Below, in pieces: positions 1-45,372 of a DNA stretch of 64,000 bases. The stretch is from an uncultured Gemmatimonadota bacterium (GTDB lineage Bacteria > Gemmatimonadota > Gemmatimonadetes > Palauibacterales > Palauibacteraceae), in NCBI GenBank assembly GCA_964518305.1, contig CAZFDK010000006.1, forward strand, positions 22,618 through 86,617, in the 5' to 3' direction. The first letter of the stretch is position 1. Each line of letters begins with the position of its first letter. The position numbers were made by a program, and so were the translations under genes. The notes below the pieces were generated by a model. That model worked only from the letters and a program-made list of their open reading frames with translations, had not been told where the DNA came from and did no database searches.

Positions 1-397
1 ACAGTCCCTCCAGAAAGCCGTATCCTCGGCCGTGCTGGAAGAGGGCCAGGTACAGGATGGCGCAGTTCGTCGTGATCAGCGGCAGGAAGACTCCCAGCTG
101 CCGGAAGAGCGTCGGGCTCACCTTCTTGACCGTGATCTCCACGATCTGCACCAGCGAAGCGATGATCACGATGTAGGAGATGAGACGCAGGTAGGGGGCG
201 GCGGGCAGCACGTAGGCGTTCAGAAATGAGGTCGCCAGCGAGGTGATGGTCATCACGAAGATCACCGCGCCGCCCATCCGTATGGCCGTGGACACGCGGT
301 TGGAGACGCCGAAGAACGGGCACAGGCCCACGAAGTAGGCCAGCACGAAGTTGTTGACCAGCGCTGCCGAGAAGAACACGTACGCCAGGTTTTCCAT
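1..397 (-). CDS. rnfA: Rnf electron-transport complex subunit A (RnfA), 3' end outside the window
   Basis: The reverse translation from the ATG at 395-397 reads MENLAYVFFSAALVNNFVLAYFVGLCPFFGVSNRVSTAIRMG..., a typical RnfA/NqrE-type polytopic N-terminus. The ATG overlaps the rnfE stop (ATGA). This gene is not in the ORF track because it runs off the window edge. Confidence 0.9.
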   Translation of the reverse strand, partial: MENLAYVFFSAALVNNFVLAYFVGLCPFFGVSNRVSTAIRMGGAVIFVMTITSLATSFLNAYVLPAAPYLRLISYIVIIASLVQIVEITVKKVSPTLFRQLGVFLPLITTNCAILYLALFQHGRGYGFLEGL

Positions 398-1104
398 CAG
401 CTGCTCCCCTCTCCGCCCGGCACCTTCTCCCGCGCCGGCTCCTCGGTGCGAACCCCCTGCGGCCACCGGCGCGGCTGGACCGCCTCCTCGGACTCCTCGC
501 CCCGTTCGGCCCACCAGCTCACGCCGAGCAGGACGATGCCCAGGGTGAAGAAGCCGCCGGGCGGAAGAATCATGATCACCCACGGCTCCCAGGAGCCGGG
601 CATCACCTGCGCCCCCATCAGGGTGCCGCTGCCCAGGAGCTCACGGACCCCGCCCATCAGCAGGAGGGCGATCCAGAACCCGGCGGAGGTGCCCAGGGCG
701 TCGAGGACGGAGAGGCCCAGGGGGTTCTCGGACGCGAAAGCCTCCTGGCGGCCCAGGATCATGCAGTTCACGACGATCAGCGGCACGAACGCCCCGAGGG
801 CGCGCGAGGCCGACGGCGCCACCGCCCCCATGGCCAGGTCGACGATGGTCACGAACGTGGCGATGACCAGGATGAAGGTGGAGATCCGCACCTGCTCCGG
901 GACCCAGCCCTTGATCAGGGAGACGAGGGTGCTGGAGCCCACCAGCACGAAGGTGGTCGCCGCGCTCATGGCGATGGCGTTCTGCACGGTGTTGGTCACC
1001 GCCAGGGCGGGGCAGAGACCCAGGAGCTGGATGAGCACCGGGTTCTCCTCCCACACGCCCCGGAGGAAGACCTCTCCCGGCTCCTTCTCCCTCATCGGGC
1101 TCAT
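397..1104 (-). CDS. rnfE: Rnf complex subunit E (RnfE)
   Basis: 235-aa polytopic protein with GVWEENPVLIQLLGLCPALAVT and IVVNCMILGR motifs typical of RnfE/NqrD. ATGA overlaps link it to rnfG upstream and rnfA downstream. Confidence 0.9.
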   Translation of the reverse strand: MSPMREKEPGEVFLRGVWEENPVLIQLLGLCPALAVTNTVQNAIAMSAATTFVLVGSSTLVSLIKGWVPEQVRISTFILVIATFVTIVDLAMGAVAPSASRALGAFVPLIVVNCMILGRQEAFASENPLGLSVLDALGTSAGFWIALLLMGGVRELLGSGTLMGAQVMPGSWEPWVIMILPPGGFFTLGIVLLGVSWWAERGEESEEAVQPRRWPQGVRTEEPAREKVPGGEGSS

Positions 1105-1856
1105 GGCGATCCTCCCGTCCGGTCCCCGTCTCCGCCGGCGCCGGCCGGGCCGGACTTACCGGTGGACGGCGCGGGCAGGCCGGCCTTCGCCTCCTCGCGG
1201 AGCGTCGCACCGACGGCGCTGAGCTGCTCGTTGATGATCTCGATGACGGTCTCCGACGAGATCGTGGCGCCCGTGATCATGTCGACCTGGCCGGGGTCGT
1301 CGCCGCCCTCCTTCACTCCCTCCAGCGGAGGACGGATCCCCTCGAACTCGCTGATGAAGCTGCTGTCGGAGGTGATCTTGGCTCCGAGCCCCGGCGTCTC
1401 CTTGCTCTCCAGCACCGTCATGCCCATGACGCGGTCCTCGCGGGGATCGTAGCCGAAGATCAGCCGCACCACGTCCTGGTAGCCGGGCTTCTCGCCCGCC
1501 ACCGCGAATCCTGCCAGCCGTCCGCCATCGAACCCGGCGTAGACGGTCTTCGCGGCGGCCGAGTCCACGCCGGACGGCAGGCTGTCGAGGAGCTGGCCGT
1601 CGACCACGTGCATGGCCCGGTAGGTTTCCGGGCCGCCGAGGACCTGCTGGACGGCCGACCGCAGGCGCTCCGCCCGGTGGGAGACGATCTTCGGGTGAGC
1701 CCACTGGTAGACGAAGACGATGGCGAAGCCCGCCATCACCGCGGCAATTCCCAGCGTCACGATCAGCCTCCACGGCGCGGGCTGCCGGTTCTCCGGCGAC
1801 GGTCCGCTCTCCCCGTCTCCGTTCCCGTCGCCCACGGGCAACTCGCGCTCGCTCAT
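1101..1856 (-). CDS. rnfG: Rnf complex subunit G (RnfG, FMN-binding)
   Basis: Only the C-terminal 251 aa of track ORF 1101..2789 look real. They have a single N-terminal TM (WRLIVTLGIAAVMAGFAIVFVY) and the FMN-attachment region VDMITGATISSETV (SGAT-like). The ATG at 1854-1856 overlaps the rnfD stop (ATGA). Confidence 0.85.
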   Translation of the reverse strand: MSERELPVGDGNGDGESGPSPENRQPAPWRLIVTLGIAAVMAGFAIVFVYQWAHPKIVSHRAERLRSAVQQVLGGPETYRAMHVVDGQLLDSLPSGVDSAAAKTVYAGFDGGRLAGFAVAGEKPGYQDVVRLIFGYDPREDRVMGMTVLESKETPGLGAKITSDSSFISEFEGIRPPLEGVKEGGDDPGQVDMITGATISSETVIEIINEQLSAVGATLREEAKAGLPAPSTGKSGPAGAGGDGDRTGGSP

Positions 1857-2941
1857 CCGGATCCCCCCTCCGCCGCCCGCGCCCCGAAGGGCGTGGGCAG
1901 GGTGACCCGGTCCAGGAACGGGACCAGGGCGTTCATGAACAGGATCGCGTACATGATCCCCTCGGGCAGGCCGCCCCAGATGCGGATCAGGACCGTGATC
2001 ACACCGATCCCGATGCCGAACAGCCAGACGCCGCTGGCCGTCACCGGGGACGTGACCATGTCGGTGGCCATGTAGACGGCGCCCAGGATCAGGCCTCCGG
2101 AGAAGATCATGAACAGCGGGCCCGGATAGGCGGCGGGGTCGATCAGGTGCAGGACGCCGGAGAAGGCGGCGACCGTGGCGAAGATGCTCACCGGTATGCG
2201 CCAGTCCAGGTAGTTCTTGAGGGCCAGGTAGCCGCCGCAGATCAGGATGACGAGGCCGGCGGTCTCGCCCAGGGAGCCGCCGGTGTTGCCGATGAGCAGG
2301 CGTCCGACCTCGGTGATCTCCCCCTCGAACTTCATCAGCCCCAGGGGCGTCGCCGCGGTGGCCGCGTCGATCTCGGGAGGCTGCAGGAGGGGCAGGGCGA
2401 GGTTCGACTGGTAGACGGTGGCCCGGCCGACGCCCACGGCCGGCCACGTGGTGATGGCCGTGGGGAAGGAGGCCTGGAGGAACGCCCGTCCCAGGAGCGC
2501 CGGGTTGAAGACGTTCTGGCCCAGCCCGCCGAAGATCAGCTTGCCGAACCCCAGGCCGAAGGCGCCCCCGAGAGCGGCCATCCACAGCGGGATGCTGGCG
2601 GGGAGCGTGAGCCCGAGGAGGACGCCGGTGATGACCGCCGATCCGTCGGAGACGGCGTCCAGGTCCTCGAAGGCCCACTCCGTGGCCACGGCCCCGACGG
2701 TTGCGGCCGAGATCACGAGGAGCGCCGAGAGGCCGAAGAACCAGGCGGCGGCGCCCACCACCGGGACCAGGGTCGCCGCCACGGTCCACATGATCCGCGG
2801 CGTGGAGTCCGGGGACTGGATGTGGGGAGACGGCGCGATGCGGAGGGCGGCGCCGGAATCATCCGGCCGCCGGTCCGCGTGCCCCGATGCGCGTCCCCGG
2901 GCCCGTCCGGAGGACCCTCGGCCCCCTCCGCCCGGGGTCAC
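1853..2941 (-). CDS. rnfD: Rnf complex subunit D (RnfD)
   Basis: The real part of track ORF 1853..3991 includes the SPHI motif near the N-terminus, GLGQNVFNPALLGRAF, and the TGATPL-like ATPLGL region. The proposed GTG start at 2939-2941 overlaps the rnfC TGA (GTGA). No ATG lies upstream of the conserved SPHI. Confidence 0.88.
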   Translation of the reverse strand: MTPGGGGRGSSGRARGRASGHADRRPDDSGAALRIAPSPHIQSPDSTPRIMWTVAATLVPVVGAAAWFFGLSALLVISAATVGAVATEWAFEDLDAVSDGSAVITGVLLGLTLPASIPLWMAALGGAFGLGFGKLIFGGLGQNVFNPALLGRAFLQASFPTAITTWPAVGVGRATVYQSNLALPLLQPPEIDAATAATPLGLMKFEGEITEVGRLLIGNTGGSLGETAGLVILICGGYLALKNYLDWRIPVSIFATVAAFSGVLHLIDPAAYPGPLFMIFSGGLILGAVYMATDMVTSPVTASGVWLFGIGIGVITVLIRIWGGLPEGIMYAILFMNALVPFLDRVTLPTPFGARAAEGGSG

Positions 2942-4356
2942 GCCGCGTCCTTTTCCGGGCCCCCGTCCCCGGACCCGGTCCCGTCGGCCGACTCCTCCGG
3001 CTCGTCCTCGGCCTCCTCCGCCAGGCGGCGGAGCCGGCGGACCTGGTTCTTGCCCGCGGCGATGAGCTGGGTGAGGGGGATGTTGGAAGGGCAGACGTAC
3101 GCGCAGCTCCCGCACAGCATGCAGTCGTCGAGGTCGAGCTCCGTCATCTCCTCGAACTGACCGGCCCGTGAGAAGAGTCCGAGGTCGGCCGGGTCGAGGA
3201 ACACCGGGCAGGCCTCGAGGCAGCGCCCGCACCGGATGCAGGGATACTCCGGCCCGGTGGCGGCCGCGTCCGAGGTGAGGATGACGATTCCGGTGGTCCC
3301 CTTGAGGATCGGGGTGTCCAGGTCGGCCTGGGCGTTGCCCATCATCGGGCCACCGAAGACCACGCGCTCGGCGTCCTGCGTGAGGCCGCCGCAGAACTCG
3401 ATGGCATCGGCGATCCGGGTGCCCACCGGGACGGTGAGATTGGACGGGCGGCGGATTCCGGGGCCGGTGACCGTGACGATCCGCTCCACCAGCGGGTAGC
3501 CGGTCTCGAACACCTGGGCGATGGTGGAGATCGAGCCCACGTTCTGAACCACTACCCCGACCTCCAGGGGCAGGCCGCCGGAGGGGACCTCCCGGTCGAG
3601 GATCGACTTGATCATCATCTTCTCGGCGCCCTGCGGGTACTTGGCCCGTAGGGAGACGACGGAGATGTCCAGGTCGCTCGGGATCGTCTGGCGGAGCTCC
3701 TCGATTGCGTCGGGCTTGTTCTCCTCCACGCCGATCACCGCCCGCTCCACGTCCAGGGCGTGCATCATCACGCGGAGTCCGAAGTGCACCCGGTCCGGGT
3801 GCTCCACCATGGTCCGGTGGTCGCCGGTCAGGTACGGCTCGCACTCGGCCCCGTTGGCGATGATCGTGTCGATCTCGGCGTCCTCCGGGGGCGAGAGCTT
3901 GACGTGGGTGGGGAAGGCGGCCCCGCCCAGGCCCACCACGCCGGCGTCCTTCACGGCGCCTGCCACCTCGCCGGCTTCCAGCTCCTTCCACTCGGGTACG
4001 ATCCGGGGCCGCGGCACCTGCGGATCATGGGGATCGACGTCGACGATCACCGCCTCCTGCATCGATCCGTCGGGATGCGGCCAGCGTCGGATGTCGCGGA
4101 CCGTACCGGCGGCCGAGGCGTGGATGGGGGAGGAGATGAAGCCCCGGGCCTCGCCGATCTTGTCGCCCCGCTGCACCCGGTCGCCTTTCTCCACCAGCGG
4201 ACGGGCCGCCTCGCCCGCGTGCTGCTTCAGCGGCAGGGCCAGTCGGTCCGGGAAGGGCATGCGGCGGATCGCCTCGCCGGAGGTGAGATCCTTCAGGTCC
4301 GGGGGGTGGACCCCGTGCCTGAAGCCGGAGCCGACGTCCAGGTCGAAGAGGCTCAC
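2938..4356 (-). CDS. rnfC: Rnf complex subunit C (RnfC; NADH-binding, 2x[4Fe-4S])
   Basis: Motifs include VVGLGGAAFPTHVKL, ANGAECEPYLTGDHR, and two ferredoxin motifs (CIRCGRCLEACP and CMLCGSCAYVCP). I prefer the GTG at 4354-4356, which overlaps the upstream stop (GTGA), over the track ATG at 4383, which would overlap the upstream gene by 31 nt. Confidence 0.9.
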   Translation of the reverse strand: MSLFDLDVGSGFRHGVHPPDLKDLTSGEAIRRMPFPDRLALPLKQHAGEAARPLVEKGDRVQRGDKIGEARGFISSPIHASAAGTVRDIRRWPHPDGSMQEAVIVDVDPHDPQVPRPRIVPEWKELEAGEVAGAVKDAGVVGLGGAAFPTHVKLSPPEDAEIDTIIANGAECEPYLTGDHRTMVEHPDRVHFGLRVMMHALDVERAVIGVEENKPDAIEELRQTIPSDLDISVVSLRAKYPQGAEKMMIKSILDREVPSGGLPLEVGVVVQNVGSISTIAQVFETGYPLVERIVTVTGPGIRRPSNLTVPVGTRIADAIEFCGGLTQDAERVVFGGPMMGNAQADLDTPILKGTTGIVILTSDAAATGPEYPCIRCGRCLEACPVFLDPADLGLFSRAGQFEEMTELDLDDCMLCGSCAYVCPSNIPLTQLIAAGKNQVRRLRRLAEEAEDEPEESADGTGSGDGGPEKDAA

Positions 4357-7300
4357 TGGAACGGCTCCGCCCGCTCGATCCACTCCTCCAGATCCGGCTC
4401 GTCCGGATCCATGGGATCACCGGGATGGATGATGGCGGCAGTGCACTTCTCGGCCGCCTTCACCAGCTCTCTGAACGTGCCCGCCTCCGGGTCCTTGATG
4501 TAGGCCTGCTTGTCGTCGTCATAGGCGAACATGTCGTCGTTGATGTCGATGCACTCGTCGCAGGTGGTGCACCGGGCGGTCTCGATGTAGGGCTCGCGGC
4601 GGATCGTCTGCTCTTTCGCCGCGTCCGCCGCCTCCGCTTCGTCCGCGGCATCCTCCGCCGCCGCTTCTTCCTCCACGGCGGTCTTCTCGGCAGGGGGCGC
4701 CGCGGTGGCGGTTCCACCGCCCGCCGGCCCGCTCTCGGACCCGGCCGTGCCGGCGCCCGACCCATTTCCGCCCGGGCCGGCCTCCTCGACGTCGATGAGC
4801 TCCAGGTTCGGGGTGCTCTCCGCCTCCTCCAGCAGGTCCCCCACAGTCCGGTCGCGGTCCACCGACCGGACCAGCCCCTCGGCCATGCGCCGCGCCACCT
4901 TCCGGGCGTAGTCCCGCTTGAATTGCGCGAGCTCCTCGTCGTAGCGGGACTCGAGCTCCTCCTGCCGGGCCTCCAACTCCTGCTCCAGCTCGGAGCGGAT
5001 CTCGTCGCGCACCGACTCCGGGACCTCGAGACCCGCCAGCTCCCGCAGCTGCGACCAGAAGGAGAGACGCTCCTCGGCCAGCTCGACCATCTCCTCCGAG
5101 GCGGCCAGCCGCGAGATCCGATCAACCCCGTCCAGCGAGTAGACGAAGGGAGTGGCGTCGGCCCGCCCCTCCTCGTCCAGGTCCACGTACTCGTGGAAGA
5201 GAACGAGCTTCTCGCCGTCGGGACCCTCCGGCGCCCGGCCCTCGTCGTCGGGGAGCGGCAGCTCGGCCCTCCCCAGGTCGCGGAAGTGCCTCCCGAACCG
5301 GCCCTCGGTGGCCGCCCAGTCGGCGATCGTCATGGGCAGCTCCAGGGTCCGCGTCTCGTCGCCCTCCGGGGAGCGGTACTCCAGCTCGTAGGTGGGCCAC
5401 CGCTCGTCCACCGAGGGGTTGCCCTCGAGGCTCAGGCAGTCGGCGATGGAGTCGCCGGCGTCGGGATCGTAGGTGAAGTGGGGGAAGGCGCGGCTCTCCA
5501 GGGCGAGGCGCGCGGCCTCGGGCGCCCACTCGTCCGGCGTCCCGTGCTCCACGGGGCAGGGGGTGTGGATGTTGAAGATCGCCGGGCGGCGCTTCCTGAG
5601 GCCCTTCAGCACGCCCTCCAGCATGTGGGAGGCCGTGGCCTGGGAGCTCTGGAGCACGTACGCGCCGCGGTGGGCCAGGGCGATCAGCCCCAGCTCCTTG
5701 CGCGTCTCTTCCTTGCCGTGCTGGGCCTCGCCGTACTCCGCCATGTCGGAGACCTGGCCCAGGAAGCCGCTCGTGCACGCCTGGCCGCCGGTGTTCGAGT
5801 AGACCTGGGTGTCCAGCACGAGCACCCGGATCGGCTTCCCGGAGGCCAGGAGCCGCGAGAGGTTCTGGTGGCCGATGTCCAGCATGGCGCCGTCTCCGCC
5901 GACGACGAGCATCGGGGGACAGAGCTCGAACTCCTCGTCGGTGAGGTCGCGCCACCCCAGGTTTCGGAGCCGTGTCCCGTCCTCGCCGGGGTCGTACTCG
6001 TCTTCGAGGATCAGCTCCGCGCGGCGGACGTTGGCGAAGTCGTCCGCCATGTCCCGCATGTGGCCCTCGAAGATGCCGATGGCCACGGACGGGGCGTCCT
6101 GGAAGAGGTGGTTCACCCAGGGCACCGGGTACGGATTGTACGGGTAGGTGCTGCCCCAGACGGAGGAGCAGCCCGTGCTGTTGGCGATCCCGAGCTCGGC
6201 GCGGCCCCGACCGCTGGGTCCCTCCACGTAGCGCCAGCGGAGGTCCCGCAGGTCCTCGAGGGTGTCGGCGATGCGCCGCAGCCGCTCCTTCTTGCCCGGC
6301 TCCAGCTCGACGTCGACGGTGTCGTCCCCGGAGATGGCCGCCAGGTCGACCTCGACGTCTTCGGAGACCATCTCCCGGGCCTCGCGGTCCAGCGCCTCGA
6401 TCAGCTCGTCCAGCTTCTCGACGAAGTCCTCGACCCGGGACTGCATGGCGGCCGTGACGGCCGACACCACGAGGTGGACCGTGGTCTTCTCGCCGCAGCC
6501 CATGCAGGCCCCGTCCCCGCCCACCATGGAGCGATAGACGTCCTTCTTGAGGAGCAGGGAGGGAAGGACGCCGATCCCACGGTCCACGTCCACGACGTTG
6601 ATGTACCGGTCGTCGGTGTCCGGGAGCTCCTCCCACAGATCCCAGTTGCGGCGGAGCTCCTCGACCGTCTCCTCGTCCTGCTGCACCGTGCGCAGGGCGT
6701 CGTCCGGGCAGACCTCCACGCAGATGTTGCAGCCCTTGCATGCCTCCGGGTCCACCGTGATGGAGAGGAGCCCGCCCGTGCCGTCCTCGCGTGACTCGGG
6801 GACCTCCCAGAAGGGCGAGGTCTTCGCCACGGGAAAGTCCTCGAGCACAGAGTGAACGGCCGCGAAGTCCCGGTCGAGCTCCGCTTTCCGCTCCGGTGCC
6901 CAGTCCAGCTTCGGCGTCAGGTTCTCGTACGCCGTCCGCACCGTGTCGCCGAAGTCCTCCACGGGGGTGGCCTCAACCACGCTGCGGATCTCCCGGGCCA
7001 GGTGCTTCGACACCTGCCGGAGGCGGTCCAGCGAGCGGTCGCCGCGGGAGGCTACGCGGATGGCGGAGTCCAGGATCTGCTCCGGCGTGTTGACCAGGCC
7101 GGGAATGGCGCTGTCCGGACACTGCGTCCAGCACTTGCTGCACCCGGTGCAGTTCTCGGGAACGAACTCCGGCACCTCGAGGCGGATGCTCGTCATGTCC
7201 TTGATGGCGCTCGAGGCCGCCGGGATGGCGCTGAGGGCCGCGAAGGGGTCCGCCACCGGGTCCTCGCCGCCCTCGTACAGGGAGCACACCTGGCCGAAGA

Positions 7301-9563
7301 AGCGCCCGGGGTCGGCCACGCCGGGCTCGGCGTCCACGCGCATCTCCGTCGGAATCTCCGCCATGGGGAGCGGCTGGCCCGGGGCGTCCGCGCGCTCGTC
7401 CTCGGGCACCGGCACCGGGCGGACCTCATCGTAGCCGCGCTGAATGACCCGCACGTTGTCCTCGACGACCTCGTCTCCCAGGTAGCCGAACTTACGCTCC
7501 ATCCGGGCGCGGATGCCCCCGAAGAGCGTCTCCTCGTCCAGTCCAAGGTTCTCCATCAGGGGGGAGACGGCGAAGAAGGCCCCCATGAAGGCCCCGCCCT
7601 GCATCCGATAGCGGAGGCTGGGGTCGGAGGCCTCGTCGGCGGCGATTCGAAAGCCGTCCAGGGCGTAGACCTGAATGTCCCGGTCGCGGATCTCGCGACG
7701 GGCGCGGTCGGGGAGTTCGTCCCACAGCTCCGCCGGCGGCCGATCGCTCTGGATCACGAAGGCGCCTCCGTCCTCGAGGCCGTGGAGCGGATCCGACGTG
7801 CCGAACACGTTCGGGTCCGGCGAGAGCACGGCGTCGACGTGCTTGAGCTCGGCGTTGATCCGGACCGGGTCCGGCGAGAGCGTGGCGAAGAAGGTCGTGG
7901 GCTGTCCCTTCTTCTCCGACCCGTACTTGGGATTGGCCTTGATGTGCAGCCCGGCCAGCTCGAAGGCGGTCATCGCCAGGTTCTTGCCCGTGGTCATCGC
8001 CCCCCATCCGCCCACGGAGTGAATGCGGAGGGAGACCGAGTCGTCGGGCATCAGGTCCAGGTCGCCGGCGGAATCCAGGGCCAGGTCCGTCAGCTCCGGA
8101 TAGTCGTCCAGCAGTTCCTCCTGCTGCACCTGGAGCTTCGGATAGCGGGTGTCCTCCCGGACGAAGTCGACGCCCAGGTAGTACTGGCGCCGGCCGTCGC
8201 CGTCGTCGAGCATGTTCTCCACCGCCGCCACCAGGTCGCCGGGCTGGAGGTCCCGGCTGCCCATGCCGAAGGCGGCGGAGTAGAGCTCCGGAGTCTCACC
8301 GTCGCCGATCGGTGTGACACCGGGGTGGGGGAGCGGGCTGTCGCTCTCCGCGGGAAGCGGATAGCGGGGGTGCGCCGAGTGCCCGTCGGCCCGCCCGTTC
8401 TCCCGCCCCTTGGAGAGGGCCGTCCGAATCTCGCGAAGCAGCGGGGCGTCGGAAGCCAGCGGCTGGTCCAGCCGCTCCAGCACCGTCACGCCCTCCTTGC
8501 CGCGCAGGAGCCGGGTCACCCGGTCCGAGGGGAAGGGACGGAACATGGTCATGTTGAGCACGCCGACCTTCAGCCCCCGCTCCTCACGCAGGTAGTCCGC
8601 GGTTGCCTGGGCGTTGCCCACCACGGTGCCCTGTCCCACGAGCACGTAGTCGGCGTCGTCCAGCCGGTACCCCGAGGCCCGCTCGTACCGCCGGCCCGTG
8701 AGACGCGCGTACTCCTCCATCGCCCGTTCCGTCAGCTCCCGGACGTGGCCGAAGTAGAAGGGTCGCTGGGCGGCCACTCCCTGCGCGTAGGAGTCCTGGT
8801 TCTGGACGGAGCCGAGCAACGCCGGATAGTCGAAGTCGTAGAGGACGGGGATCCTGCGGCGCCGGTCGCCGAACACCTTCCGCTGCGCCGGGGTGGGGGC
8901 GTCGATCATGTCCGACGGGTCGCCGAGGTAGGCCCGCACGAGTTCGGGCCCCGGCAGGAGCAGGGACTCGATCACGTGGGTGCTCAGGAACCCGTCCTGG
9001 GCCATTACGCCCGGGTTCAGCGCCAGCTCGGCGATGCGGTGGGCGATCAGGTTCAGGTCCGCCGCCTCCTGGACGTTCTTCGCGAAGAGCTGGAAGAACC
9101 CGGTGTCGTCGATGGCGTGGTAGTCGTCGTGGCCGGCATGGATGTTCAGCGCCTGCTTGGTCATGGCCCGGCAGGCCATGTTCAGCACGTACGGCAGGCG
9201 CTTGCCGGCGGCCGCGTACAGGGACTCATGCATGTACGCGATGCCCTGGCTGCCCGAGAAGTTCGCGGCCCGGAGCCCGGACATGCTCATTCCCGCCGTC
9301 ACGCCGGCCGCGGCGTGCTCGCCCTCGGGCTCGAAGAAGAGCAGCTCCCGGCCGAATGCGTTCTTCTTCCCGCGGGCGGCGGCGCTGGACCATCCTTCGC
9401 CCATGTCCGTGGCGGGGGTGATGGGATACGCGCCGGCGGCCTCGCTGGCCTCGGTCTCCACCGAGGCGACGGCCTCGCTGCCGTCCATGGCCACGGTCTC
9501 CCCGGGGAAGGGCGGTCCGTCGGCCTCGTCGCGCTCGCGGTCGTGTTTCTCGGACGGGGTCAT
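4353..9563 (-). CDS. Giant fused 2-oxoacid:ferredoxin oxidoreductase (PFOR/NifJ-like, 1736 aa) with a C-terminal coiled-coil, flexible linker and single-cluster ferredoxin domain
   Basis: PFOR domain order can be read directly. It has N-terminal YPITPATDM and a gamma-like SVGGWGAMTTGKNL...KYGSEKKG region. Two motifs follow, CTGCSKCWTQCP and CKGCNICVEVCP. The TPP domain carries GDGACMGCGEKT and GGDGAMLDIGHQNL...SNTGGQ. The C-terminal ~330 aa are extra: a heptad-like charged segment, an Ala/Gly/Glu linker, then CTTCDEC...EKCTAAIIHPG. Confidence 0.9.
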   Translation of the reverse strand: MTPSEKHDRERDEADGPPFPGETVAMDGSEAVASVETEASEAAGAYPITPATDMGEGWSSAAARGKKNAFGRELLFFEPEGEHAAAGVTAGMSMSGLRAANFSGSQGIAYMHESLYAAAGKRLPYVLNMACRAMTKQALNIHAGHDDYHAIDDTGFFQLFAKNVQEAADLNLIAHRIAELALNPGVMAQDGFLSTHVIESLLLPGPELVRAYLGDPSDMIDAPTPAQRKVFGDRRRRIPVLYDFDYPALLGSVQNQDSYAQGVAAQRPFYFGHVRELTERAMEEYARLTGRRYERASGYRLDDADYVLVGQGTVVGNAQATADYLREERGLKVGVLNMTMFRPFPSDRVTRLLRGKEGVTVLERLDQPLASDAPLLREIRTALSKGRENGRADGHSAHPRYPLPAESDSPLPHPGVTPIGDGETPELYSAAFGMGSRDLQPGDLVAAVENMLDDGDGRRQYYLGVDFVREDTRYPKLQVQQEELLDDYPELTDLALDSAGDLDLMPDDSVSLRIHSVGGWGAMTTGKNLAMTAFELAGLHIKANPKYGSEKKGQPTTFFATLSPDPVRINAELKHVDAVLSPDPNVFGTSDPLHGLEDGGAFVIQSDRPPAELWDELPDRARREIRDRDIQVYALDGFRIAADEASDPSLRYRMQGGAFMGAFFAVSPLMENLGLDEETLFGGIRARMERKFGYLGDEVVEDNVRVIQRGYDEVRPVPVPEDERADAPGQPLPMAEIPTEMRVDAEPGVADPGRFFGQVCSLYEGGEDPVADPFAALSAIPAASSAIKDMTSIRLEVPEFVPENCTGCSKCWTQCPDSAIPGLVNTPEQILDSAIRVASRGDRSLDRLRQVSKHLAREIRSVVEATPVEDFGDTVRTAYENLTPKLDWAPERKAELDRDFAAVHSVLEDFPVAKTSPFWEVPESREDGTGGLLSITVDPEACKGCNICVEVCPDDALRTVQQDEETVEELRRNWDLWEELPDTDDRYINVVDVDRGIGVLPSLLLKKDVYRSMVGGDGACMGCGEKTTVHLVVSAVTAAMQSRVEDFVEKLDELIEALDREAREMVSEDVEVDLAAISGDDTVDVELEPGKKERLRRIADTLEDLRDLRWRYVEGPSGRGRAELGIANSTGCSSVWGSTYPYNPYPVPWVNHLFQDAPSVAIGIFEGHMRDMADDFANVRRAELILEDEYDPGEDGTRLRNLGWRDLTDEEFELCPPMLVVGGDGAMLDIGHQNLSRLLASGKPIRVLVLDTQVYSNTGGQACTSGFLGQVSDMAEYGEAQHGKEETRKELGLIALAHRGAYVLQSSQATASHMLEGVLKGLRKRRPAIFNIHTPCPVEHGTPDEWAPEAARLALESRAFPHFTYDPDAGDSIADCLSLEGNPSVDERWPTYELEYRSPEGDETRTLELPMTIADWAATEGRFGRHFRDLGRAELPLPDDEGRAPEGPDGEKLVLFHEYVDLDEEGRADATPFVYSLDGVDRISRLAASEEMVELAEERLSFWSQLRELAGLEVPESVRDEIRSELEQELEARQEELESRYDEELAQFKRDYARKVARRMAEGLVRSVDRDRTVGDLLEEAESTPNLELIDVEEAGPGGNGSGAGTAGSESGPAGGGTATAAPPAEKTAVEEEAAAEDAADEAEAADAAKEQTIRREPYIETARCTTCDECIDINDDMFAYDDDKQAYIKDPEAGTFRELVKAAEKCTAAIIHPGDPMDPDEPDLEEWIERAEPFQ

Positions 9564-9564
9564 G

Positions 9565-10455
9565 TCACCTCACTCCTGTCGCTTCTTCCGTCGCTGCTCC
9601 GGCCGCCGGCTGTCGCTCGTCCTCCGGCCGCTCTCCCTCGGAGAACTGGGCGCCGTCCACCCAGCCCAGGGCGTCGGTCGGGCAGCTTCCGGTGAGCCCG
9701 GGCTCCGCCAGCTCGTTCTTCTCGTAATCGATGACGGCCAGCCCGTCCTCCATGGTGATCAGGTCGTCGGGCGCGTCCCGGGCGCACCGGGCGCAGCCGT
9801 CGCAGGCCACCGCGCAGACGGCGGTGGCCGAGTCGCCTTCGAGCAGGCTCCGGCACTCGACGATCAGCTTCTGCTCCGTGGGCATGATGGTGAACAGGTC
9901 CAGCGGGCAGGCCTCGACGCAGTCCTCGCACGCCGTGCACAGCTCGGGATCGACCACCGGGAGGTCGTTCTCGTTCATCCGGATCGCGTCGAAGTCGCAG
10001 GCCACGGCGCAGTCCCCCAGGCCGACGCAGCCCCAGGGGCAGGCCTTGCCGCCGCCGGTCACCGCCACCGCGGCGGCGCAGCTCTCCGCGCCCTCGTAGT
10101 CGACCTTCCGGGGGGCCACGTCCGAGCCCCCCTTGCAGAGGAGCCGGGCCACCCGGTCCCGCGCCTCGCCGGCCTCGAGCTCCAGCTCCGCGGCCAGGAG
10201 CTCCCGCTCCTCCGCGGACATGTTGGTGCAGTCGGCCGGGTCCACCTCGCCCTCGACCAGGGCCTCCGCGAACGCGCGGCAGCCGGGCTCGCCACAGGCG
10301 CCGCAGTCGGTGCCGGGGAGCATATCCTCGGCCTCGTCGATTCGCGGGTCCTCCCAGACCCAGAACACCCGGTTCACCACGGCGATGGCGGTACCCAGGA
10401 CGAAACCGATGCCTCCCAGGATGCTCGCGGGGAGGAAGATCGACGTCAGCTCCAC
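9565..10455 (-). CDS. rnfB: Rnf complex subunit B (RnfB; membrane-anchored polyferredoxin)
   Basis: It has an N-terminal TM helix (ILGGIGFVLGTAIAVV) and an RnfB-type Cys cluster (DCGACGEPGCRAFAEAL...ADC). Downstream are CPWGCVGLGDCAVAC and CTACEDCVEACP 4Fe-4S motifs. The start is GTG, with GGAGG 6 nt upstream. Confidence 0.85.
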   Translation of the reverse strand: MELTSIFLPASILGGIGFVLGTAIAVVNRVFWVWEDPRIDEAEDMLPGTDCGACGEPGCRAFAEALVEGEVDPADCTNMSAEERELLAAELELEAGEARDRVARLLCKGGSDVAPRKVDYEGAESCAAAVAVTGGGKACPWGCVGLGDCAVACDFDAIRMNENDLPVVDPELCTACEDCVEACPLDLFTIMPTEQKLIVECRSLLEGDSATAVCAVACDGCARCARDAPDDLITMEDGLAVIDYEKNELAEPGLTGSCPTDALGWVDGAQFSEGERPEDERQPAAGAATEEATGVR

Positions 10456-10509
10456 GGCGACCTCCGTGTTCGGGCTCCGCTCTCCGCTCGGCGTTCGGGT
10501 CGCATGGGA

Positions 10510-11532
10510 TCAGCCCTCCAGGTCCTCGAGGCCGGACTGGCGGAGGAGCCAGCCGGCCAGGCGGTCCGCCGGGTCGGCCTCCTCGGCCTCGTGGCCGGGA
10601 GGACCTCCGTTCTCCGAGGCGTCGGCGACATCGGCTGCCAGCGCCAGGGCGCGGAGCTGGGCGAGCTCCTCGGCCTGCTGGCTCCGGGTGGCAGAGCCCA
10701 CCGGGCGCAGGTGGTCCTCTTCGGGCAGGTGCTCCACGGAGAGCCGCGCGGAGAGGGACGCCTCGGACACGGGACGGTGGACGAAGCGCGCCGCGCTCTC
10801 GGCTCCCCCGGGCACGAGCGCTGCCACCCCCGGTCCGTCGTGCGCCCGGAGGGGGGCGAGGTCGTCCGGGTCGTCCGACTGGACGACCAGGGTGCCCGGG
10901 GTGATCAGGCGGACCAGGGGAGCCGCGGGGGACTGACCCTCCACCACCAGCACGAGCTTGAGGCTGCCGTCCATGACCTCGGCCAGCCCACCCGGCCGGA
11001 GTGCTTCGCCCGGGAGGCGGATCACCAGCGGCGGCGCGACCCGGCGCTCCTGCGCGTTCCACATGGCCGGGGGGAAGTCCTCCAGGTAGCCGGCGTGTGC
11101 GTCCTGCCGGAAGCGGCCCGATCGCGCCAGCTCCACGGTTCGTGCCGCGCCGAAGGCCCGCCCCGCGCGGGCCAGGGCGGCCGCGGCCTCGTCCCGGAGG
11201 TCGTCGTCGGCCCCGAGGTCCAGGCGGAAGAGCTCCTCGCCGGAGCGGTGGACCTCCTGCAGGACTTCGCGGGCCCGCTCCACCAGATCGACGGTCCCGG
11301 GATCCAGTCCGCCGGTCTCCTCCAGGACGCTGGCGAAGCGCTCCGGATCGATCCGTCCCTCGGCCAGCTGGCCCAAGGAGGAATCCCGTCGGCGCTCGTC
11401 CCCCGCGGGTACGCGCTGCTCCTCCAGGAGGCCTCCGACCTCGTCCACGGCTCCGGCGACGGCCGACCGGAACGCCTCGCGGTCCTCGGCCACGGCTTCG
11501 AGCGCTCGCTGCACCCGATCGTCAGACGGCAT
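10510..11532 (-). CDS. Hypothetical protein (340 aa, acidic, Cys-free) embedded between korB and rnfB
   Basis: The ORF has non-repetitive, coding-like composition and high GC3. Its ATG overlaps the korB stop region by 11 nt. I recognise no family motif. Confidence 0.6.
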   Translation of the reverse strand: MPSDDRVQRALEAVAEDREAFRSAVAGAVDEVGGLLEEQRVPAGDERRRDSSLGQLAEGRIDPERFASVLEETGGLDPGTVDLVERAREVLQEVHRSGEELFRLDLGADDDLRDEAAAALARAGRAFGAARTVELARSGRFRQDAHAGYLEDFPPAMWNAQERRVAPPLVIRLPGEALRPGGLAEVMDGSLKLVLVVEGQSPAAPLVRLITPGTLVVQSDDPDDLAPLRAHDGPGVAALVPGGAESAARFVHRPVSEASLSARLSVEHLPEEDHLRPVGSATRSQQAEELAQLRALALAADVADASENGGPPGHEAEEADPADRLAGWLLRQSGLEDLEG

Positions 11533-12490
11533 GGCGGTCCAGCTCCTCCTCCAGGGTCTCCACTCTCTCCTCGGCCGATCGGCGGGGCACCGATCGGATC
11601 TGGTCGTAGGCCGGGCGGGACTCGTCCCGGAAGTAGACGCCGAGTCGGATCCGTTCCCGGTCCTCCCCCTCCTCCTCGGCCAGCCGCCGGGCGAAGTCCA
11701 GGTCGCCCGGCTCGTGCCGGCGCTGGTGCTCGTAGATCTCCGAGAGTCCGCCCTCGGCCTCCACGCCGTCCGGGTGCACCAGCAGCTCGATCCGGTCCGG
11801 GTCCCGGACGGCGTCCAGGAACATCTCCTCGGTGTAGTGGGGGCAGCGCTGGAGGATGCGGACGAAGGCGAAGCCCTCGTGGTGGTAGGCGGCCTCCAGG
11901 GTAGCGTCGAGGTGCTGGGGCACCCATTCGGCCGTCTGCGCCACGAAGGACACGTTGCTCACCCCGAGGGTGGCGGTGAGCGGGTTCATGGCGGGGAGGA
12001 AGGTTCCCTGGGGCTGAGTGTTGGTCTGGTAGCCCCGGGGCGTGGTGGGGGAGGTCTGCTTCTTCGTCAGGCCGTAGATGTGGTTGTCGAACATCATGGC
12101 GACCATGTCCGTGTTGTAGCGGGTCGCGTGGATCCAGTGCCCGGCGCCGATGGAGACGCAGTCGCCGTCCCCCATCACGGCGAAGACGTCCAGGTCCGGC
12201 CGGTGGAGCTTGACGCCGGTGGCCACGGGCAGGGCGCGCCCGTGGATGGCGTGAAAGCCGTAGGTGTCGATGTGATGCGGGAAGCGGCCGGAGCAGCCGA
12301 TGCCCGACACCACCACCGTCTCCTCGGGGGCGATCTGCTCGTTCTTGAGGAGCCGCTCGGTGGCGGCCAGAATCGAGTGGTCACCGCATCCGGGGCACCA
12401 CCGGGCCTGCGGCCCTTCGTAGTCCTCCATCTCGAGGACCTGGTCCTGCTCCCGGGCTCGCCGGAGCAGGGAGCATCCTTGCGTTCTCAT
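11522..12490 (-). CDS. korB: 2-oxoglutarate/2-oxoacid:ferredoxin oxidoreductase, beta subunit (KorB-type, TPP-binding)
   Basis: This is the real C-terminal part of track ORF 11522..14293. Motifs are WCPGCGDH, SGIGCSGRF, GDGDCVSIGAGH and YGLTKKQTSPTT. The ATG at 12488-12490 overlaps the korA stop (ATGA). Confidence 0.9.
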   Translation of the reverse strand: MRTQGCSLLRRAREQDQVLEMEDYEGPQARWCPGCGDHSILAATERLLKNEQIAPEETVVVSGIGCSGRFPHHIDTYGFHAIHGRALPVATGVKLHRPDLDVFAVMGDGDCVSIGAGHWIHATRYNTDMVAMMFDNHIYGLTKKQTSPTTPRGYQTNTQPQGTFLPAMNPLTATLGVSNVSFVAQTAEWVPQHLDATLEAAYHHEGFAFVRILQRCPHYTEEMFLDAVRDPDRIELLVHPDGVEAEGGLSEIYEHQRRHEPGDLDFARRLAEEEGEDRERIRLGVYFRDESRPAYDQIRSVPRRSAEERVETLEEELDRHAV

Positions 12491-14418
12491 CCGTTTCCTC
12501 CGTCCGTGGCGGCTCGGGACTCGTCGAGAAGGCGGTCGCGAATCGCCCCGTGGACCTGCATGGGGCGGAGCGGCTCCGTGAGCACTTTGCTCCAGCTGTC
12601 CACGTCGACCAGCGTCGTGGAGCGGAGCAGGGTCGCGAGCTGTCCCCGCCGGCGGTTCTCCTCTGTGATGTAGGGGTCGTCGACGTCGTCGCTGTAGTTG
12701 ATCTCGGCCGTCATCACCCGATCGAAGCGGTCGAAGATCTCGCCGAGCCCCGGCGGGAGGGGCGAGAGGAAGGTCAGGTGCAGCGAGGAGACCGAGAGGC
12801 CCTCCTCGCGGGCCCGGTCCACGGCCTCCTCGATGGCCCCCTTCGTGCTCCCCCACCCGACGACCAGGAGATCGCCCGAGTCGTCGCCGTGGACCTCGGG
12901 CGGCGTCAGGGTGCTCTGGAGGACGGCCAGCTTGCGGCTCCGCATCTCGGAGGCGTGCTGGTTCAGGTCGTAGTCGTAGGCGACGACGCTCTCCTCGTCG
13001 TGGGCGAGTCCCGTGGCGGAGAACTGACCGCCGGACTGGCCCGGCACGAAGCGCTGGGACAGGCCCGTCCGCTCGTTCCAGTCGTAGGGCGGCTTGTCCT
13101 CCGGTACCGGGCTCTGATCGGGCGGGGTCCCCTGCCAGGCGGTCTCCGGTTCCGGCCGGGGGAACGGCTGCACGCCGCGACCCAGGTTCGCGTCGGAGAG
13201 GATCATGACCACGGCCCGGAAGGTCTCGGCGATGCGGCGGGCGGTGATCATCGCGTGGAAGCAGTCCTCGATGGTGGCCGGGGCGATCACCACGTGGGGC
13301 GCGTCGCCCGGCTGTCCGTACAGGGCCGCCAGGAGGTCGGACTGCTCCACGCGGGTGGGAAGGCCCGTGCTCGGCCCGCCGCGCTGCACGTCGACCAGGA
13401 CCAGCGGCGTCTCCGTCATGATGGCCAGGCCCAGGAACTCGGTCTTCAGCGCCACTCCCGGTCCGGACGTGAAGGTGACGGCGGGCTTGCCGGAGAAGGA
13501 GGCTCCGACCGCGACGCCGGCCGCGGCGATTTCGTCCTCCGCCTGATGGAGGGTCCCACCGTAGTCCTCGAAGATCCGCCCCAGGTAGTGGGAGATGGAC
13601 GACGCCGGCGTGATGGGATACATGGAGGCCAGCTCGAACCCGGCGGCCACCGTCCCGAGCGCCACCGCCTGGTTGCCGTTCATCACCACCTTCTCGCCTT
13701 CGTCGGCAGTGGGCGGGACCTCGATCCGGAAGGGCAGGTTCTCCTCGGCCCACTCGAGGCCGCGATGGAGGAGGGCGACGTTGCTCTCGGTGATGGTGTC
13801 CGCTTTGTGGGCGAACTTCCGGGCGATGGCGTCTTCGATGAGGTCGACGTCCCGCTCGTAGGCGTGGGCCAGGAGGCCGAGGACGAACATGTTCTTGCCC
13901 TTCCGGGGGTCCTCGACCACCTCGAGGCACTCCTCCTCCATGGGAACCCGGACGATCCGGTAGTCGGACTCCGACAGCTCCTCCATGGCGGCGTCCCACT
14001 CCTCCCGCACCTCCTCGTCGTCGTGGTCCGCCCACATGTCCTCGATGAGGATCGTGGCGTCCTCGGCCAGCACGCCGAGGCGGTGACGGGACAGGAGGAC
14101 CTGCTCGTTGAAGGCCACCACGAGGTCGCTGTAGTCCCCCCAGTTGGTGACCTCCTCCGAGCCCAGCCGGATGCGGTTGCCGGAAGCGCCGGCGGGAGTT
14201 CGGGCGGGGGGCTCGATCTCGGCGGGGATGATCTCCACGGACCAGACGCCGTTGCCCATGCGGGCTGAGACGGTTCCGAAGATGCGCCCGCACGTCTGGG
14301 CGCCTTCCCCGGAGTCGGAGACGACCTCCACCGTATGGTGATCGGTGCGGAGCGTCTCCCCCTCGGTGAGTACGGACGCGGAGTCGGCAGACCGGGAGGT
14401 GGTCGAGTGAGGTGTCAT
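12487..14418 (-). CDS. korA: 2-oxoglutarate/2-oxoacid:ferredoxin oxidoreductase, alpha subunit (KorA-type, fused gamma+alpha)
   Basis: Motifs are GEGAQTCG (gamma-like), NGNQAVALG, and YPITPASSI...DEIAAAGVAVGASFSGKPAVTFTSGPG. I chose the internal ATG at 14418 (MTPHSTT...). The 48-aa track extension upstream is low quality. Confidence 0.9.
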   Translation of the reverse strand: MTPHSTTSRSADSASVLTEGETLRTDHHTVEVVSDSGEGAQTCGRIFGTVSARMGNGVWSVEIIPAEIEPPARTPAGASGNRIRLGSEEVTNWGDYSDLVVAFNEQVLLSRHRLGVLAEDATILIEDMWADHDDEEVREEWDAAMEELSESDYRIVRVPMEEECLEVVEDPRKGKNMFVLGLLAHAYERDVDLIEDAIARKFAHKADTITESNVALLHRGLEWAEENLPFRIEVPPTADEGEKVVMNGNQAVALGTVAAGFELASMYPITPASSISHYLGRIFEDYGGTLHQAEDEIAAAGVAVGASFSGKPAVTFTSGPGVALKTEFLGLAIMTETPLVLVDVQRGGPSTGLPTRVEQSDLLAALYGQPGDAPHVVIAPATIEDCFHAMITARRIAETFRAVVMILSDANLGRGVQPFPRPEPETAWQGTPPDQSPVPEDKPPYDWNERTGLSQRFVPGQSGGQFSATGLAHDEESVVAYDYDLNQHASEMRSRKLAVLQSTLTPPEVHGDDSGDLLVVGWGSTKGAIEEAVDRAREEGLSVSSLHLTFLSPLPPGLGEIFDRFDRVMTAEINYSDDVDDPYITEENRRRGQLATLLRSTTLVDVDSWSKVLTEPLRPMQVHGAIRDRLLDESRAATDGGNG

Positions 14419-14675
14419 GGCCGTACCTCTTCTATGGATGGGCCGGGCCGTTCTCAGCCCGTCACGCCACAACTTCTTGGGGTGTCCACGCAGCGGCTGT
14501 CCGCAGGTTTCCGTACAGGAGCGTGGGGCAGGAGCGTAGAGGAGAGTGGGGACATTCCCCACACTCAGGGGCCCGGGCTCGTTCGCGAGAGTCCGGCGGA
14601 CGCTCCATTTTGGGCGCCGAGATCGTCCGTGAACCCGATCCGTCGACCCCGATCCCCGGGAGGACGCCCGTCACC

Positions 14676-15848: not shown

Positions 15849-15864
15849 GGGGGACCGCGCGAGC

Positions 15865-45177: not shown

Positions 45178-45264
45178 GGAGGGGTGGCCGAACTGGACGA
45201 AGGCAGCGGCCTTGAAAGCCGCCGGGGCGGAAGCCCTTTGTGGGTTCGAATCCCACCCCCTCCG
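45178..45264 (+). tRNA. tRNA-Ser (anticodon UGA), class II with a long variable arm
   Basis: I folded the cloverleaf by hand. The acceptor stem is GGAGGGG/CCCCTCC. The anticodon stem is GCGGC/GCCGC with loop CTTGAAA. There is a 17-nt variable arm and a T-arm GTGGG-TTCGAAT-CCCAC. The discriminator is G, and CCA is not encoded. Confidence 0.9.
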
Positions 45265-45372
45265 CCTCTCTCCGGCTCTTTCCCGCCCCCGCTCCTCGTT
45301 GCGTCCGCCCTGGACGTGCCGCGATGTTGCTCGCCGAATGTGGATCCCCCCATCCAGGAGTTTTTTGCCAGC

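Follow-up and report, generated by a model that had tools for sequence, protein, structure and literature searches.

We analyzed a 64,000-nucleotide stretch of DNA (the window) from an uncultured Gemmatimonadota bacterium (GenBank assembly GCA_964518305.1, contig CAZFDK010000006.1), with the focus on a block of genes that places 2-oxoacid:ferredoxin oxidoreductases (OFORs) among the subunit genes of an Rnf ion pump. Positions 1-14418 are filled by ten minus-strand genes: korA, korB, a gene for a 340-aa protein, rnfB, a gene for a giant OFOR of 1736 aa, rnfC, rnfD, rnfG, rnfE, and rnfA (Table 1). Rnf, pyruvate:ferredoxin oxidoreductase (PFOR), and KorAB are familiar systems; the novel elements, relative to the papers searched, are an OFOR gene conserved inside an rnf operon, the fusion of that OFOR to a predicted tethered ferredoxin, and a predicted pseudo-beta protein on korAB.

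We assigned families by Pfam and NCBIfam/TIGRFAM profile searches of the window proteins, scored against the model cutoffs. Relatives of the giant OFOR were sought in one genome per GTDB species, and at least 513 species genomes encode one. For synteny counts, the ten window proteins were mapped by tblastn to the best 80 loci from these genomes, mostly Gemmatimonadota; each denominator below is the number of loci whose contig extends far enough. Individual loci from this set are designated L followed by a number.

The rnf genes and the junctions of the block

All ten open reading frames (ORFs) lack internal stops, and each matches its expected family. The gene identities and the tight minus-strand packing given in the preliminary description of this DNA were borne out by the profile matches and by the junction sequences. 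Its list of junctions also held, with the exception of rnfE/rnfA, which had been described as an ATGA overlap and is instead TGATG. The GTG starts of rnfB, rnfC, and rnfD are predictions. The window has a G+C content of ~70%, so long spurious ORFs are abundant on both strands; the many long ORFs on the opposite strand were rejected as genes, being the usual artifact of this composition.

All six Rnf subunit genes occur in one cluster. RnfB, RnfC, RnfD, and RnfE scored above their TIGRFAM cutoffs, and RnfG and the partial RnfA passed Pfam. The expected cofactor motifs are present in RnfC (Complex1_51K and Fer4), RnfB (PF04060 and Fer4), and RnfG, which carries the flavinylation (GAT) motif "ITGATISS." The top score of RnfE was to the RsxE model. 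RnfB contains one CxxCx4C...C Fe-S domain and about 16 further cysteines. It aligned over its full length to the RnfB proteins of Acetobacterium woodii (9ERI, 186 bits) and Clostridium tetanomorphum (7ZC6, 156 bits), whereas only its N terminus aligned to RnfB of Azotobacter vinelandii (8AHX). Judged by these alignments, RnfB is of the long polyferredoxin type of the ferredoxin-oxidizing A. woodii and C. tetanomorphum enzymes, not of the short Rsx/A. vinelandii type.

The edge of the window cuts rnfA, which encodes 191 aa in relatives. RnfG and RnfD need the flavin transferase ApbE, and apbE lies downstream of rnfA in 37/46 related loci. Because this is its usual place in relatives, the block analyzed here almost certainly runs past coordinate 1, through the rest of rnfA, to apbE. 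Neither rnfH nor a long C-terminal RnfC helix was seen at this locus; in the reverse-mode Rnf of A. vinelandii, RnfH is present as an additional subunit and RnfC carries a long helix at its C terminus (PMC12174285, a 2025 review). At one related locus (L002:19816-20067), rnfA is followed by a gene for an 83-aa protein that has no Pfam match, contains a hydrophobic segment, and has a tail rich in Cys (GGCGSCAGDCGSC); it was barely detectable at other loci by tblastn and is a candidate NqrM-like factor for Fe-S maturation.

The Rnf encoded here resembles those of A. woodii (9ERI) and C. tetanomorphum (7ZC6) in its six subunits with cofactor domains, its long RnfB, and, in relatives, the downstream apbE. 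The block also shares the rnfBCDGEA gene order of the Bacteroidota type, apart from the inserted OFOR. Unlike in those systems, a 5.2-kb OFOR gene parts rnfB from rnfC, and korAB and the gene for the pseudo-subunit precede rnfB.

A promoter scan of the block, limited to the sigma-70 consensus and uninformative at 70% G+C, found no promoter-like site. A terminator scan, likewise weak at this composition, found six weak terminator-like sites where 2.7 were expected, all within coding sequence and none convincing. An Rfam search of positions 1-16000 and of the whole window detected no riboswitch or leader; the sole hit was the tRNA-Ser at 45178. The block is a conserved module that is probably transcribed as a single unit.

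Table 1. Genes, domains, and junctions of the block (window positions; cutoffs are those of the respective models)
Feature	Position	Strand	Description
korA	12487..14418	-	643 aa; alpha subunit with gamma and alpha domains fused; TIGR03710 (OAFO_sf) 511.9 bits vs 482.75; POR, POR_N, PFOR_II
korA/korB junction	12487-12490	-	ATGA overlap
korB	11522..12490	-	322 aa; ThDP/[4Fe-4S] beta subunit; TPP_enzyme_C 96 bits vs 21.9; TIGR02177 229.7 bits vs cutoff 261.9
korB/340-aa protein gene junction	11522-11532	-	11-nt overlap
340-aa protein gene	10510..11532	-	340 aa; start overlaps korB stop by 11 nt
340-aa protein gene to rnfB		-	54-nt gap; GGAGG 6 nt before GTG start of rnfB
rnfB	9565..10455	-	296 aa; membrane-anchored polyferredoxin electron-input subunit; PF04060 and Fer4; TIGR01944 80.5 bits vs 68.7
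rnfB/OFOR junction		-	1 nt between genes
Giant fused OFOR	4353..9563	-	1736 aa; POR_N, PFOR_II, POR, Fer4, TPP_enzyme_C, Fer4_13; PFOR-type domains I-II-III-V-VI
OFOR linker	4599..4814	-	~residues 1584-1655; low-complexity, Ala/Pro/Gly/Glu-rich
Predicted single-[4Fe-4S] ferredoxin domain at OFOR C terminus	4356..4598	-	residues 1656-1736; C1665, C1668, C1671, C1707
OFOR/rnfC junction	4353-4356	-	GTGA overlap
rnfC	2938..4356	-	472 aa; NAD(H)/FMN and 2x[4Fe-4S] subunit; TIGR01945 513.8 bits vs 245.95; RnfC_N, Complex1_51K, SLBB, Fer4
rnfC/rnfD junction	2938-2941	-	GTGA overlap
rnfD	1853..2941	-	TIGR01946 289.4 bits vs 207; PF03116 342 bits
rnfD/rnfG junction	1853-1856	-	ATGA overlap
rnfG	1101..1856	-	FMN-binding; PF04205 (FMN_bind) 50 bits vs 22; TIGR01947 98.5 bits, just below cutoff 102
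rnfG/rnfE junction	1101-1104	-	ATGA overlap
rnfE	397..1104	-	TIGR01948 216.3 bits vs 213.4; PRK12405 233.8 bits vs 184
rnfE/rnfA junction	395-399	-	TGATG, 1-nt overlap
rnfA, 5' part	1..397	-	132 codons, cut by window edge; PF02508 (Rnf-Nqr) 135 bits, profile positions 4-115 of 174

The oxidoreductases and the korB-coupled protein

The gene between rnfB and rnfC had been described as a giant PFOR. The PFOR-type domain order, the thiamine diphosphate (ThDP) motif, and three [4Fe-4S] motifs agree with that name; however, the protein is not a canonical NifJ, as it scored 385 bits against the NifJ equivalog model TIGR02176, far under the cutoff of 911.35. Its nearest solved structure is the Moorella PFOR 6CIN (304 bits), in a match that insertions split into five pieces. 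We judged residue invariance in an alignment of 14 homologues. The ThDP motif GGDGAM...DTQVYSNTGGQ is invariant, as are the cluster cysteines (C805/808/811/815, C942/945/948/952, and C1020/1023/1132/1336) and T49 and R132, the pair that holds the substrate carboxylate in solved PFORs; because these two residues are generic to OFORs, their conservation does not fix pyruvate specificity. The giant OFOR would most likely act on pyruvate.

The protein has ~500 extra residues. They form a C-terminal extension and insertions that follow domain II, interrupt domain V, and separate ligands of the proximal cluster. The domain V insertion sits between the two CxxCxxCxxxC motifs, which are separated by 137 residues as against about 56 usually. 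More than 100 full-length homologues (~1700 aa) have 60-91% identity; they come from Gemmatimonadota, including Longimicrobiales, Gemmatimonadales, and Palauibacterales, and are named "2-oxoacid:acceptor oxidoreductase family protein" by their sources. The nearest named cluster is a Candidatus Palauibacterales protein. The giant OFOR is like the NifJ-type PFORs of Desulfovibrio africanus (1B0P) and Moorella thermoacetica (6CIN) in domain order, ThDP motif, three [4Fe-4S] motifs, and Thr/Arg pair, and unlike them in its extra residues, helical extension, disordered linker, and putative fused ferredoxin.

The C-terminal extension consists of a conserved helical stretch, a variable linker, and a putative ferredoxin domain, in that order. 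In an AlphaFold2 (AF2) model of residues 1126-1736, the mean predicted local distance difference test score (pLDDT) was 60, and the model serves for the pattern of order and disorder, not for docking surfaces. AF2 predicted a helix of ~50 residues in the helical stretch. The linker (~75 residues), which varies among homologues in both length and sequence, is predicted to be disordered (pLDDT ~25), and the ferredoxin domain reached a pLDDT of just 52-72. The four cysteines of the ferredoxin domain are invariant among the 14 homologues, and the tail aligned to D. africanus ferredoxin I (1DAX) with an E value of 1.2e-4 over 60 residues. That ferredoxin, which is a redox partner of the organism's PFOR, has the same CxxCxxC...C pattern; it is a free protein, whereas the OFOR tail is covalently tethered. 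Across the related loci with the 3' end of the gene on the contig, the tail is present in 69/71, including every Rnf-linked copy, and is missing only from two standalone OFORs (L077 and L078). The OFOR-ferredoxin fusion, which the preliminary description had missed, is the strongest sequence-level argument for the proposed electronic wiring of the OFOR to RnfB.

The products of korA and korB are predicted to form a two-subunit 2-oxoacid oxidoreductase of the 2-oxoglutarate type. The sole lead on the substrate is the nearest solved homologue, the 2-oxoglutarate:ferredoxin oxidoreductase (OGOR) of Magnetococcus marinus (6N2N), which KorA matched with 258 bits. As in the KorAB-type enzymes of M. 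marinus and Sulfolobus tokodaii (5B46), the alpha subunit has a fused gamma domain, the beta subunit has ThDP and a single cluster, and there is no delta ferredoxin subunit; apart from the OFOR tail and RnfB, the block encodes no ferredoxin-like module. Unlike in characterized KorAB enzymes, a translationally coupled 340-aa paralogue of OFOR beta-like sequence, apparently dead, follows korB. To our knowledge, no such partner is known for characterized KorAB-type enzymes.

This 340-aa protein, which the preliminary description had labeled an orphan, had no match in Pfam or NCBIfam as a single sequence, nor in Pfam when 28 aligned members of its family were searched at E values up to 10. A profile search of the PDB returned nothing significant. 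In its confident AF2 model (pLDDT 84), helices form a bundle at the N terminus, and an alpha/beta domain comes next; Foldseek found no match to this model in the PDB at E ≤ 0.001, and among the weak hits, 7 of the top 41 are ThDP enzymes, a hint only. The family comprises 619 clusters at 50% identity, nearly all of 325-370 aa, and a search of 1.84 billion representatives with its profile found no informative domain fusion among the best 150.

Three lines of evidence nevertheless tie the protein to the ThDP-binding module of OFORs, so the orphan label does not stand. Using hhalign, we aligned residues 119-282 of the protein to residues 1168-1395 of the giant OFOR (E = 4e-4, profile against profile). 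A hidden Markov model (HMM) built from 120 members hit 120 giant OFORs collinearly in that region, with 159 domain rows vs 5 for shuffled sequences. At locus L080, the place after korB is occupied by a 779-aa protein (protein X, L080:7190-9529) that bridges the two families, itself a cofactor-less paralogue of the C-terminal half of the OFOR: it matched giant OFOR residues 1164-1579 by BLASTP (E = 7e-34) and the profile of the 340-aa family by hhalign (probability 80%). The ThDP/Mg motif is gone, as OFOR "CPPMLVVGGDGAMLDIG...DTQVYSNTGGQ" corresponds to "APPLVIRLPGEALRPGG...EGQSPAAP" ("LPGEAL...EGQSPAAP") in the 340-aa protein, and the 28-member alignment contains no conserved cysteine. With neither the GDG...NTGGQ motif nor the cluster cysteines retained, we regard the protein as a pseudo-enzyme rather than as an OFOR subunit. 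It is likely to be a cofactor-less paralogue of the ThDP-binding C-terminal module of the giant OFOR, translationally coupled to korB.

Conservation and surroundings of the block

The gene order recurs across the related loci. Upstream of the giant OFOR gene, rnfB is directly adjacent in 65/69 loci, and the gene for the 340-aa protein, korB, and korA follow in 59/63, 57/60, and 53/56 loci, respectively. Downstream, rnfC is directly adjacent in 52/57 loci, and rnfD (48/52), rnfG (46/50), rnfE (46/50), and rnfA (44/48) are found beyond it. At conserved loci, the mapped cluster genes share one strand. The exact overlaps are also conserved: 4 nt for korA/korB (48/56 loci), rnfB/OFOR (48/70), rnfC/rnfD (31/51), rnfD/rnfG (44/49), and rnfG/rnfE (39/47), and 11 nt for korB and the gene of the 340-aa protein (47/58). 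The rule used to pick starts prefers those near the upstream stop, but it cannot alone give an identical exact overlap in most genomes. Chromosome CP070829.1, a complete Gemmatimonadales sequence that encodes an OFOR of 61% identity, has the order korA, korB, a hypothetical protein (337 aa), rnfB, the OFOR (1710 aa), rnfC, rnfD, rnfG, rnfE, rnfA, a small ORF, and apbE.

The arrangement is far beyond chance. Dozens of genomes repeat the gene order and the lengths of the overlaps, although their proteins share just 35-70% identity with those of the window. The preliminary description had set out what a one-off would look like; the insertion of the OFOR gene between rnfB and rnfC and the linkage to kor prove to be conserved across Gemmatimonadota and in a few other labeled lineages, and this synteny supports the functional linkage of the block genes that it had proposed. 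A one-off rearrangement or an assembly artifact was rejected on the same ground. Cluster G+C equals flank G+C at every locus checked, and a recently acquired horizontal island was therefore also rejected.

Some loci depart from the common order. At L080 (L080:4248-16844, labeled Thermoanaerobaculia), the genes run korA, korB, protein X, OFOR, rnfB, and an alpha-like gene (POR_N/PFOR_II) that the end of the contig truncates; because KorAB, the giant OFOR, and RnfB stay together there in another order, their linkage survives rearrangement. A gene with a hemerythrin domain lies just upstream of korA at this locus. In L070:15079-21887, ~6.8 kb are inserted between the OFOR gene and rnfC, and in L037 and L059, apbE does not follow rnfA but lies between rnfG and rnfE. 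Two Gemmatimonadota loci (L009:20279-22461, minus strand, and L073:21488-23861) carry a second, distant korB/korA-like pair (~30-36% identity to that of the window) a few kb downstream of the cluster.

Three loci have a standalone giant OFOR without rnf or kor neighbors. One, labeled Acidobacteriota (L071:9890-14965), retains the ferredoxin tail; its neighbors are dnaA-dnaN-gyrB-gyrA-like genes. The other two, labeled "delta proteobacterium" (L077:9887-14614 and L078:9887-14575), encode the tail-less OFORs of 1562-1575 aa, divergent from a gene for a short-chain acyl-CoA regulator of the ScfR type; an enoyl-CoA hydratase is encoded at L078 as well. These neighbors hint at a role of the two tail-less OFORs in propionate or acyl-CoA metabolism. 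The full cluster was also found under the labels Gammaproteobacteria (L053, a 1.9-Mb contig of 57% G+C), Geobacter sp. (L042, 55% G+C), Planctomycetaceae (L050), and Acidobacteriota (L052), in each case with a G+C content equal to that of its flanks; these are either mislabeled or misbinned metagenome-assembled genomes (MAGs) or old transfers between phyla.

Within the window, positions 14412-36838 and 53140-54090 carry catabolic genes, namely, M20 and M1 peptidases, a pyridoxal phosphate-dependent enzyme, an aldehyde dehydrogenase, urocanase, proline dehydrogenase, and a Na+/dicarboxylate (DASS) symporter. As annotated, these genes fit a metabolism that supplies 2-oxoglutarate and pyruvate and draws on sodium gradients. 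The Palauibacterales, the closest named relatives of the host, are reported to be chemoorganotrophs whose MAGs lack carbon-fixation genes (PMC10469786), and some Gemmatimonadota are facultative anaerobes (PMC11651109). Elsewhere, the window encodes a 670-aa protein with a DCC1-like thiol-disulfide oxidoreductase domain and the lipase maturation factor domains LMF1 and LMF1_C, an unusual bacterial fusion (51113-53125), a DinB_2 and FGE-sulfatase protein of EgtB-like architecture (62335-63651), and a photolyase-domain protein (48654-50168). The only RNA gene of the window is tRNA-Ser(TGA) at 45178-45266.

Candidate electron routes and their meaning

Based on the content and conservation of the block, we favor, with somewhat better than even confidence, a forward route in which electrons from 2-oxoacid oxidation would pass through the tethered ferredoxin to RnfB and on to NAD+, with export of ions. 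KorAB and the giant OFOR, both ThDP/[4Fe-4S] enzymes, would oxidatively decarboxylate 2-oxoacids to acyl-CoA and CO2. In the giant OFOR, the electrons would run through the three internal clusters to its own C-terminal [4Fe-4S] ferredoxin, which, swinging on the ~75-residue disordered tether, would hand them to the polyferredoxin domain of RnfB. Rnf (subunits BCDGEA) would then reduce NAD+ at RnfC and export Na+ or H+. The oxoacid/ferredoxin couple and NAD+ differ by ~180 mV, and ion export would recover this energy, which a complex of the pyruvate dehydrogenase or 2-oxoglutarate dehydrogenase type would waste. The protein coupled to korB may act as an adaptor or scaffold that gives KorAB access to the same docking surface or to the same tethered ferredoxin. 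This direction is favored because RnfB is of the long type, RnfH and the RnfC helix are not seen, the window is catabolic, and Palauibacterales lack carbon fixation.

Several observations weigh against this route. The OFOR tail scored 21.6 bits against Fer4_13 (E = 3.7e-4), below the Pfam cutoff of 24.5. The OFOR/rnfC junction is the least conserved of the block. Since a tailed OFOR stands alone in L071, the ferredoxin tail is not exclusively an Rnf adaptor. Pyruvate is a substrate that we infer, because the score of the giant OFOR lies so far below the TIGR02176 cutoff. The nearest solved relative of KorA works as a 2-oxoglutarate synthase of the reductive tricarboxylic acid (TCA) cycle. Finally, Rnf can work in either direction, and Azotobacter is one of the aerobes that drive it backwards (PMC12174285).

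An extension of the forward route, which we put forward tentatively and consider unlikely, is that the giant OFOR forms a stable peripheral arm of Rnf. The whole would be a membrane-bound, ion-pumping 2-oxoacid:NAD+ oxidoreductase supercomplex, in which the OFOR and its tethered ferredoxin would be comparable to the N-module of complex I and the 340-aa protein would dock KorAB.

The last two of the observations listed above speak for operation in reverse. Respiration would build up an ion gradient, this gradient and NADH would reduce the tethered ferredoxin via Rnf, and the OFORs would serve as pyruvate and 2-oxoglutarate synthases, for anaplerotic or reductive-TCA-type CO2 assimilation or for a supply of low-potential electrons. 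The ferredoxin-dependent carboxylases of the reductive TCA cycle are exactly pyruvate synthase and 2-oxoglutarate synthase, which also counts in favor of this direction. However, nearly all of the phylum, which is one of organoheterotrophs, has the cluster, and carbon-fixation genes are missing from Palauibacterales MAGs (PMC10469786); RnfB is like that of the forward-mode enzymes, with neither RnfH nor the long RnfC helix present; and the neighborhood in the window is catabolic, with no ATP-citrate lyase or similar gene within the block. We consider reverse operation rather improbable.

It is also quite improbable, in our judgment, that the genes are merely co-regulated, for example under low-oxygen or fermentative conditions, with a general pool of soluble ferredoxin between the enzymes and with the tail and the 340-aa protein serving the OFORs alone (in stability, oxygen protection, or assembly). 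Facultative anaerobes do occur among Gemmatimonadota (PMC11651109), and both the tailed OFOR away from rnf in L071 and the tail-less OFORs beside fatty-acyl-CoA regulator genes in L077 and L078 are compatible with such a role. Yet in 52-65 of 57-69 loci, junctions of 1-4 nt hold the OFOR gene between rnfB and rnfC, a placement that co-regulation would not require. A ferredoxin built into the enzyme also points to a defined acceptor, and the linkage is kept under the different gene order of L080. An Rsx-like housekeeping role, in which the Rnf homologue keeps a redox sensor or Fe-S protein reduced beside incidental OFORs, as Rsx does in Escherichia coli (PMC12174285), is highly unlikely despite the best score of RnfE to the RsxE model, given the long polyferredoxin RnfB, the phylum-wide conservation of the two-OFOR synteny, and a block with no SoxR-like or other regulator gene.

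Enzymes that join an OFOR to an acceptor module, so that oxoacid oxidation ends in pyridine nucleotide, are known: the pyruvate:NADP+ oxidoreductase (PNO) of Euglena and Cryptosporidium and the NAD+-dependent phenylglyoxylate dehydrogenase PadEFGHI. In contrast to these, the module fused here is a predicted ferredoxin rather than a flavoprotein reductase, and NAD+ would be reduced by a separate ion pump in the membrane, whose genes surround that of the OFOR. In comparison with the Rnf systems of A. woodii and C. tetanomorphum, the hosts of the present cluster are mostly aerobic or facultative heterotrophs rather than fermenters or acetogens. The arrangement had been put forward as one not known to be described, and full-text searches of the literature, including Gemmatimonadota genomics papers and the 2025 RNF/NQR review, likewise found no description of this rnf/OFOR cluster in the papers covered.

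If the wiring proposed for the forward route is true, a family of 619 clusters of "hypothetical proteins" would be assigned as a probable pseudo-enzyme that arose from a module of OFORs. Current structures resolve the ferredoxin-binding part of RnfB poorly; under the same condition, the tethered ferredoxin and RnfB would offer a natural pair of donor and acceptor, genetically defined, in which the docking of ferredoxin on Rnf could be studied. The same wiring would mean that Gemmatimonadota, which abound in soils, in sediments, and in marine hosts, gain additional energy at the two oxidative decarboxylations of central metabolism, by way of oxygen-exposed ferredoxin chemistry. If the supercomplex also exists, a largely aerobic phylum would have an unrecognized energy-conserving replacement for, or supplement to, the pyruvate and 2-oxoglutarate dehydrogenase complexes.

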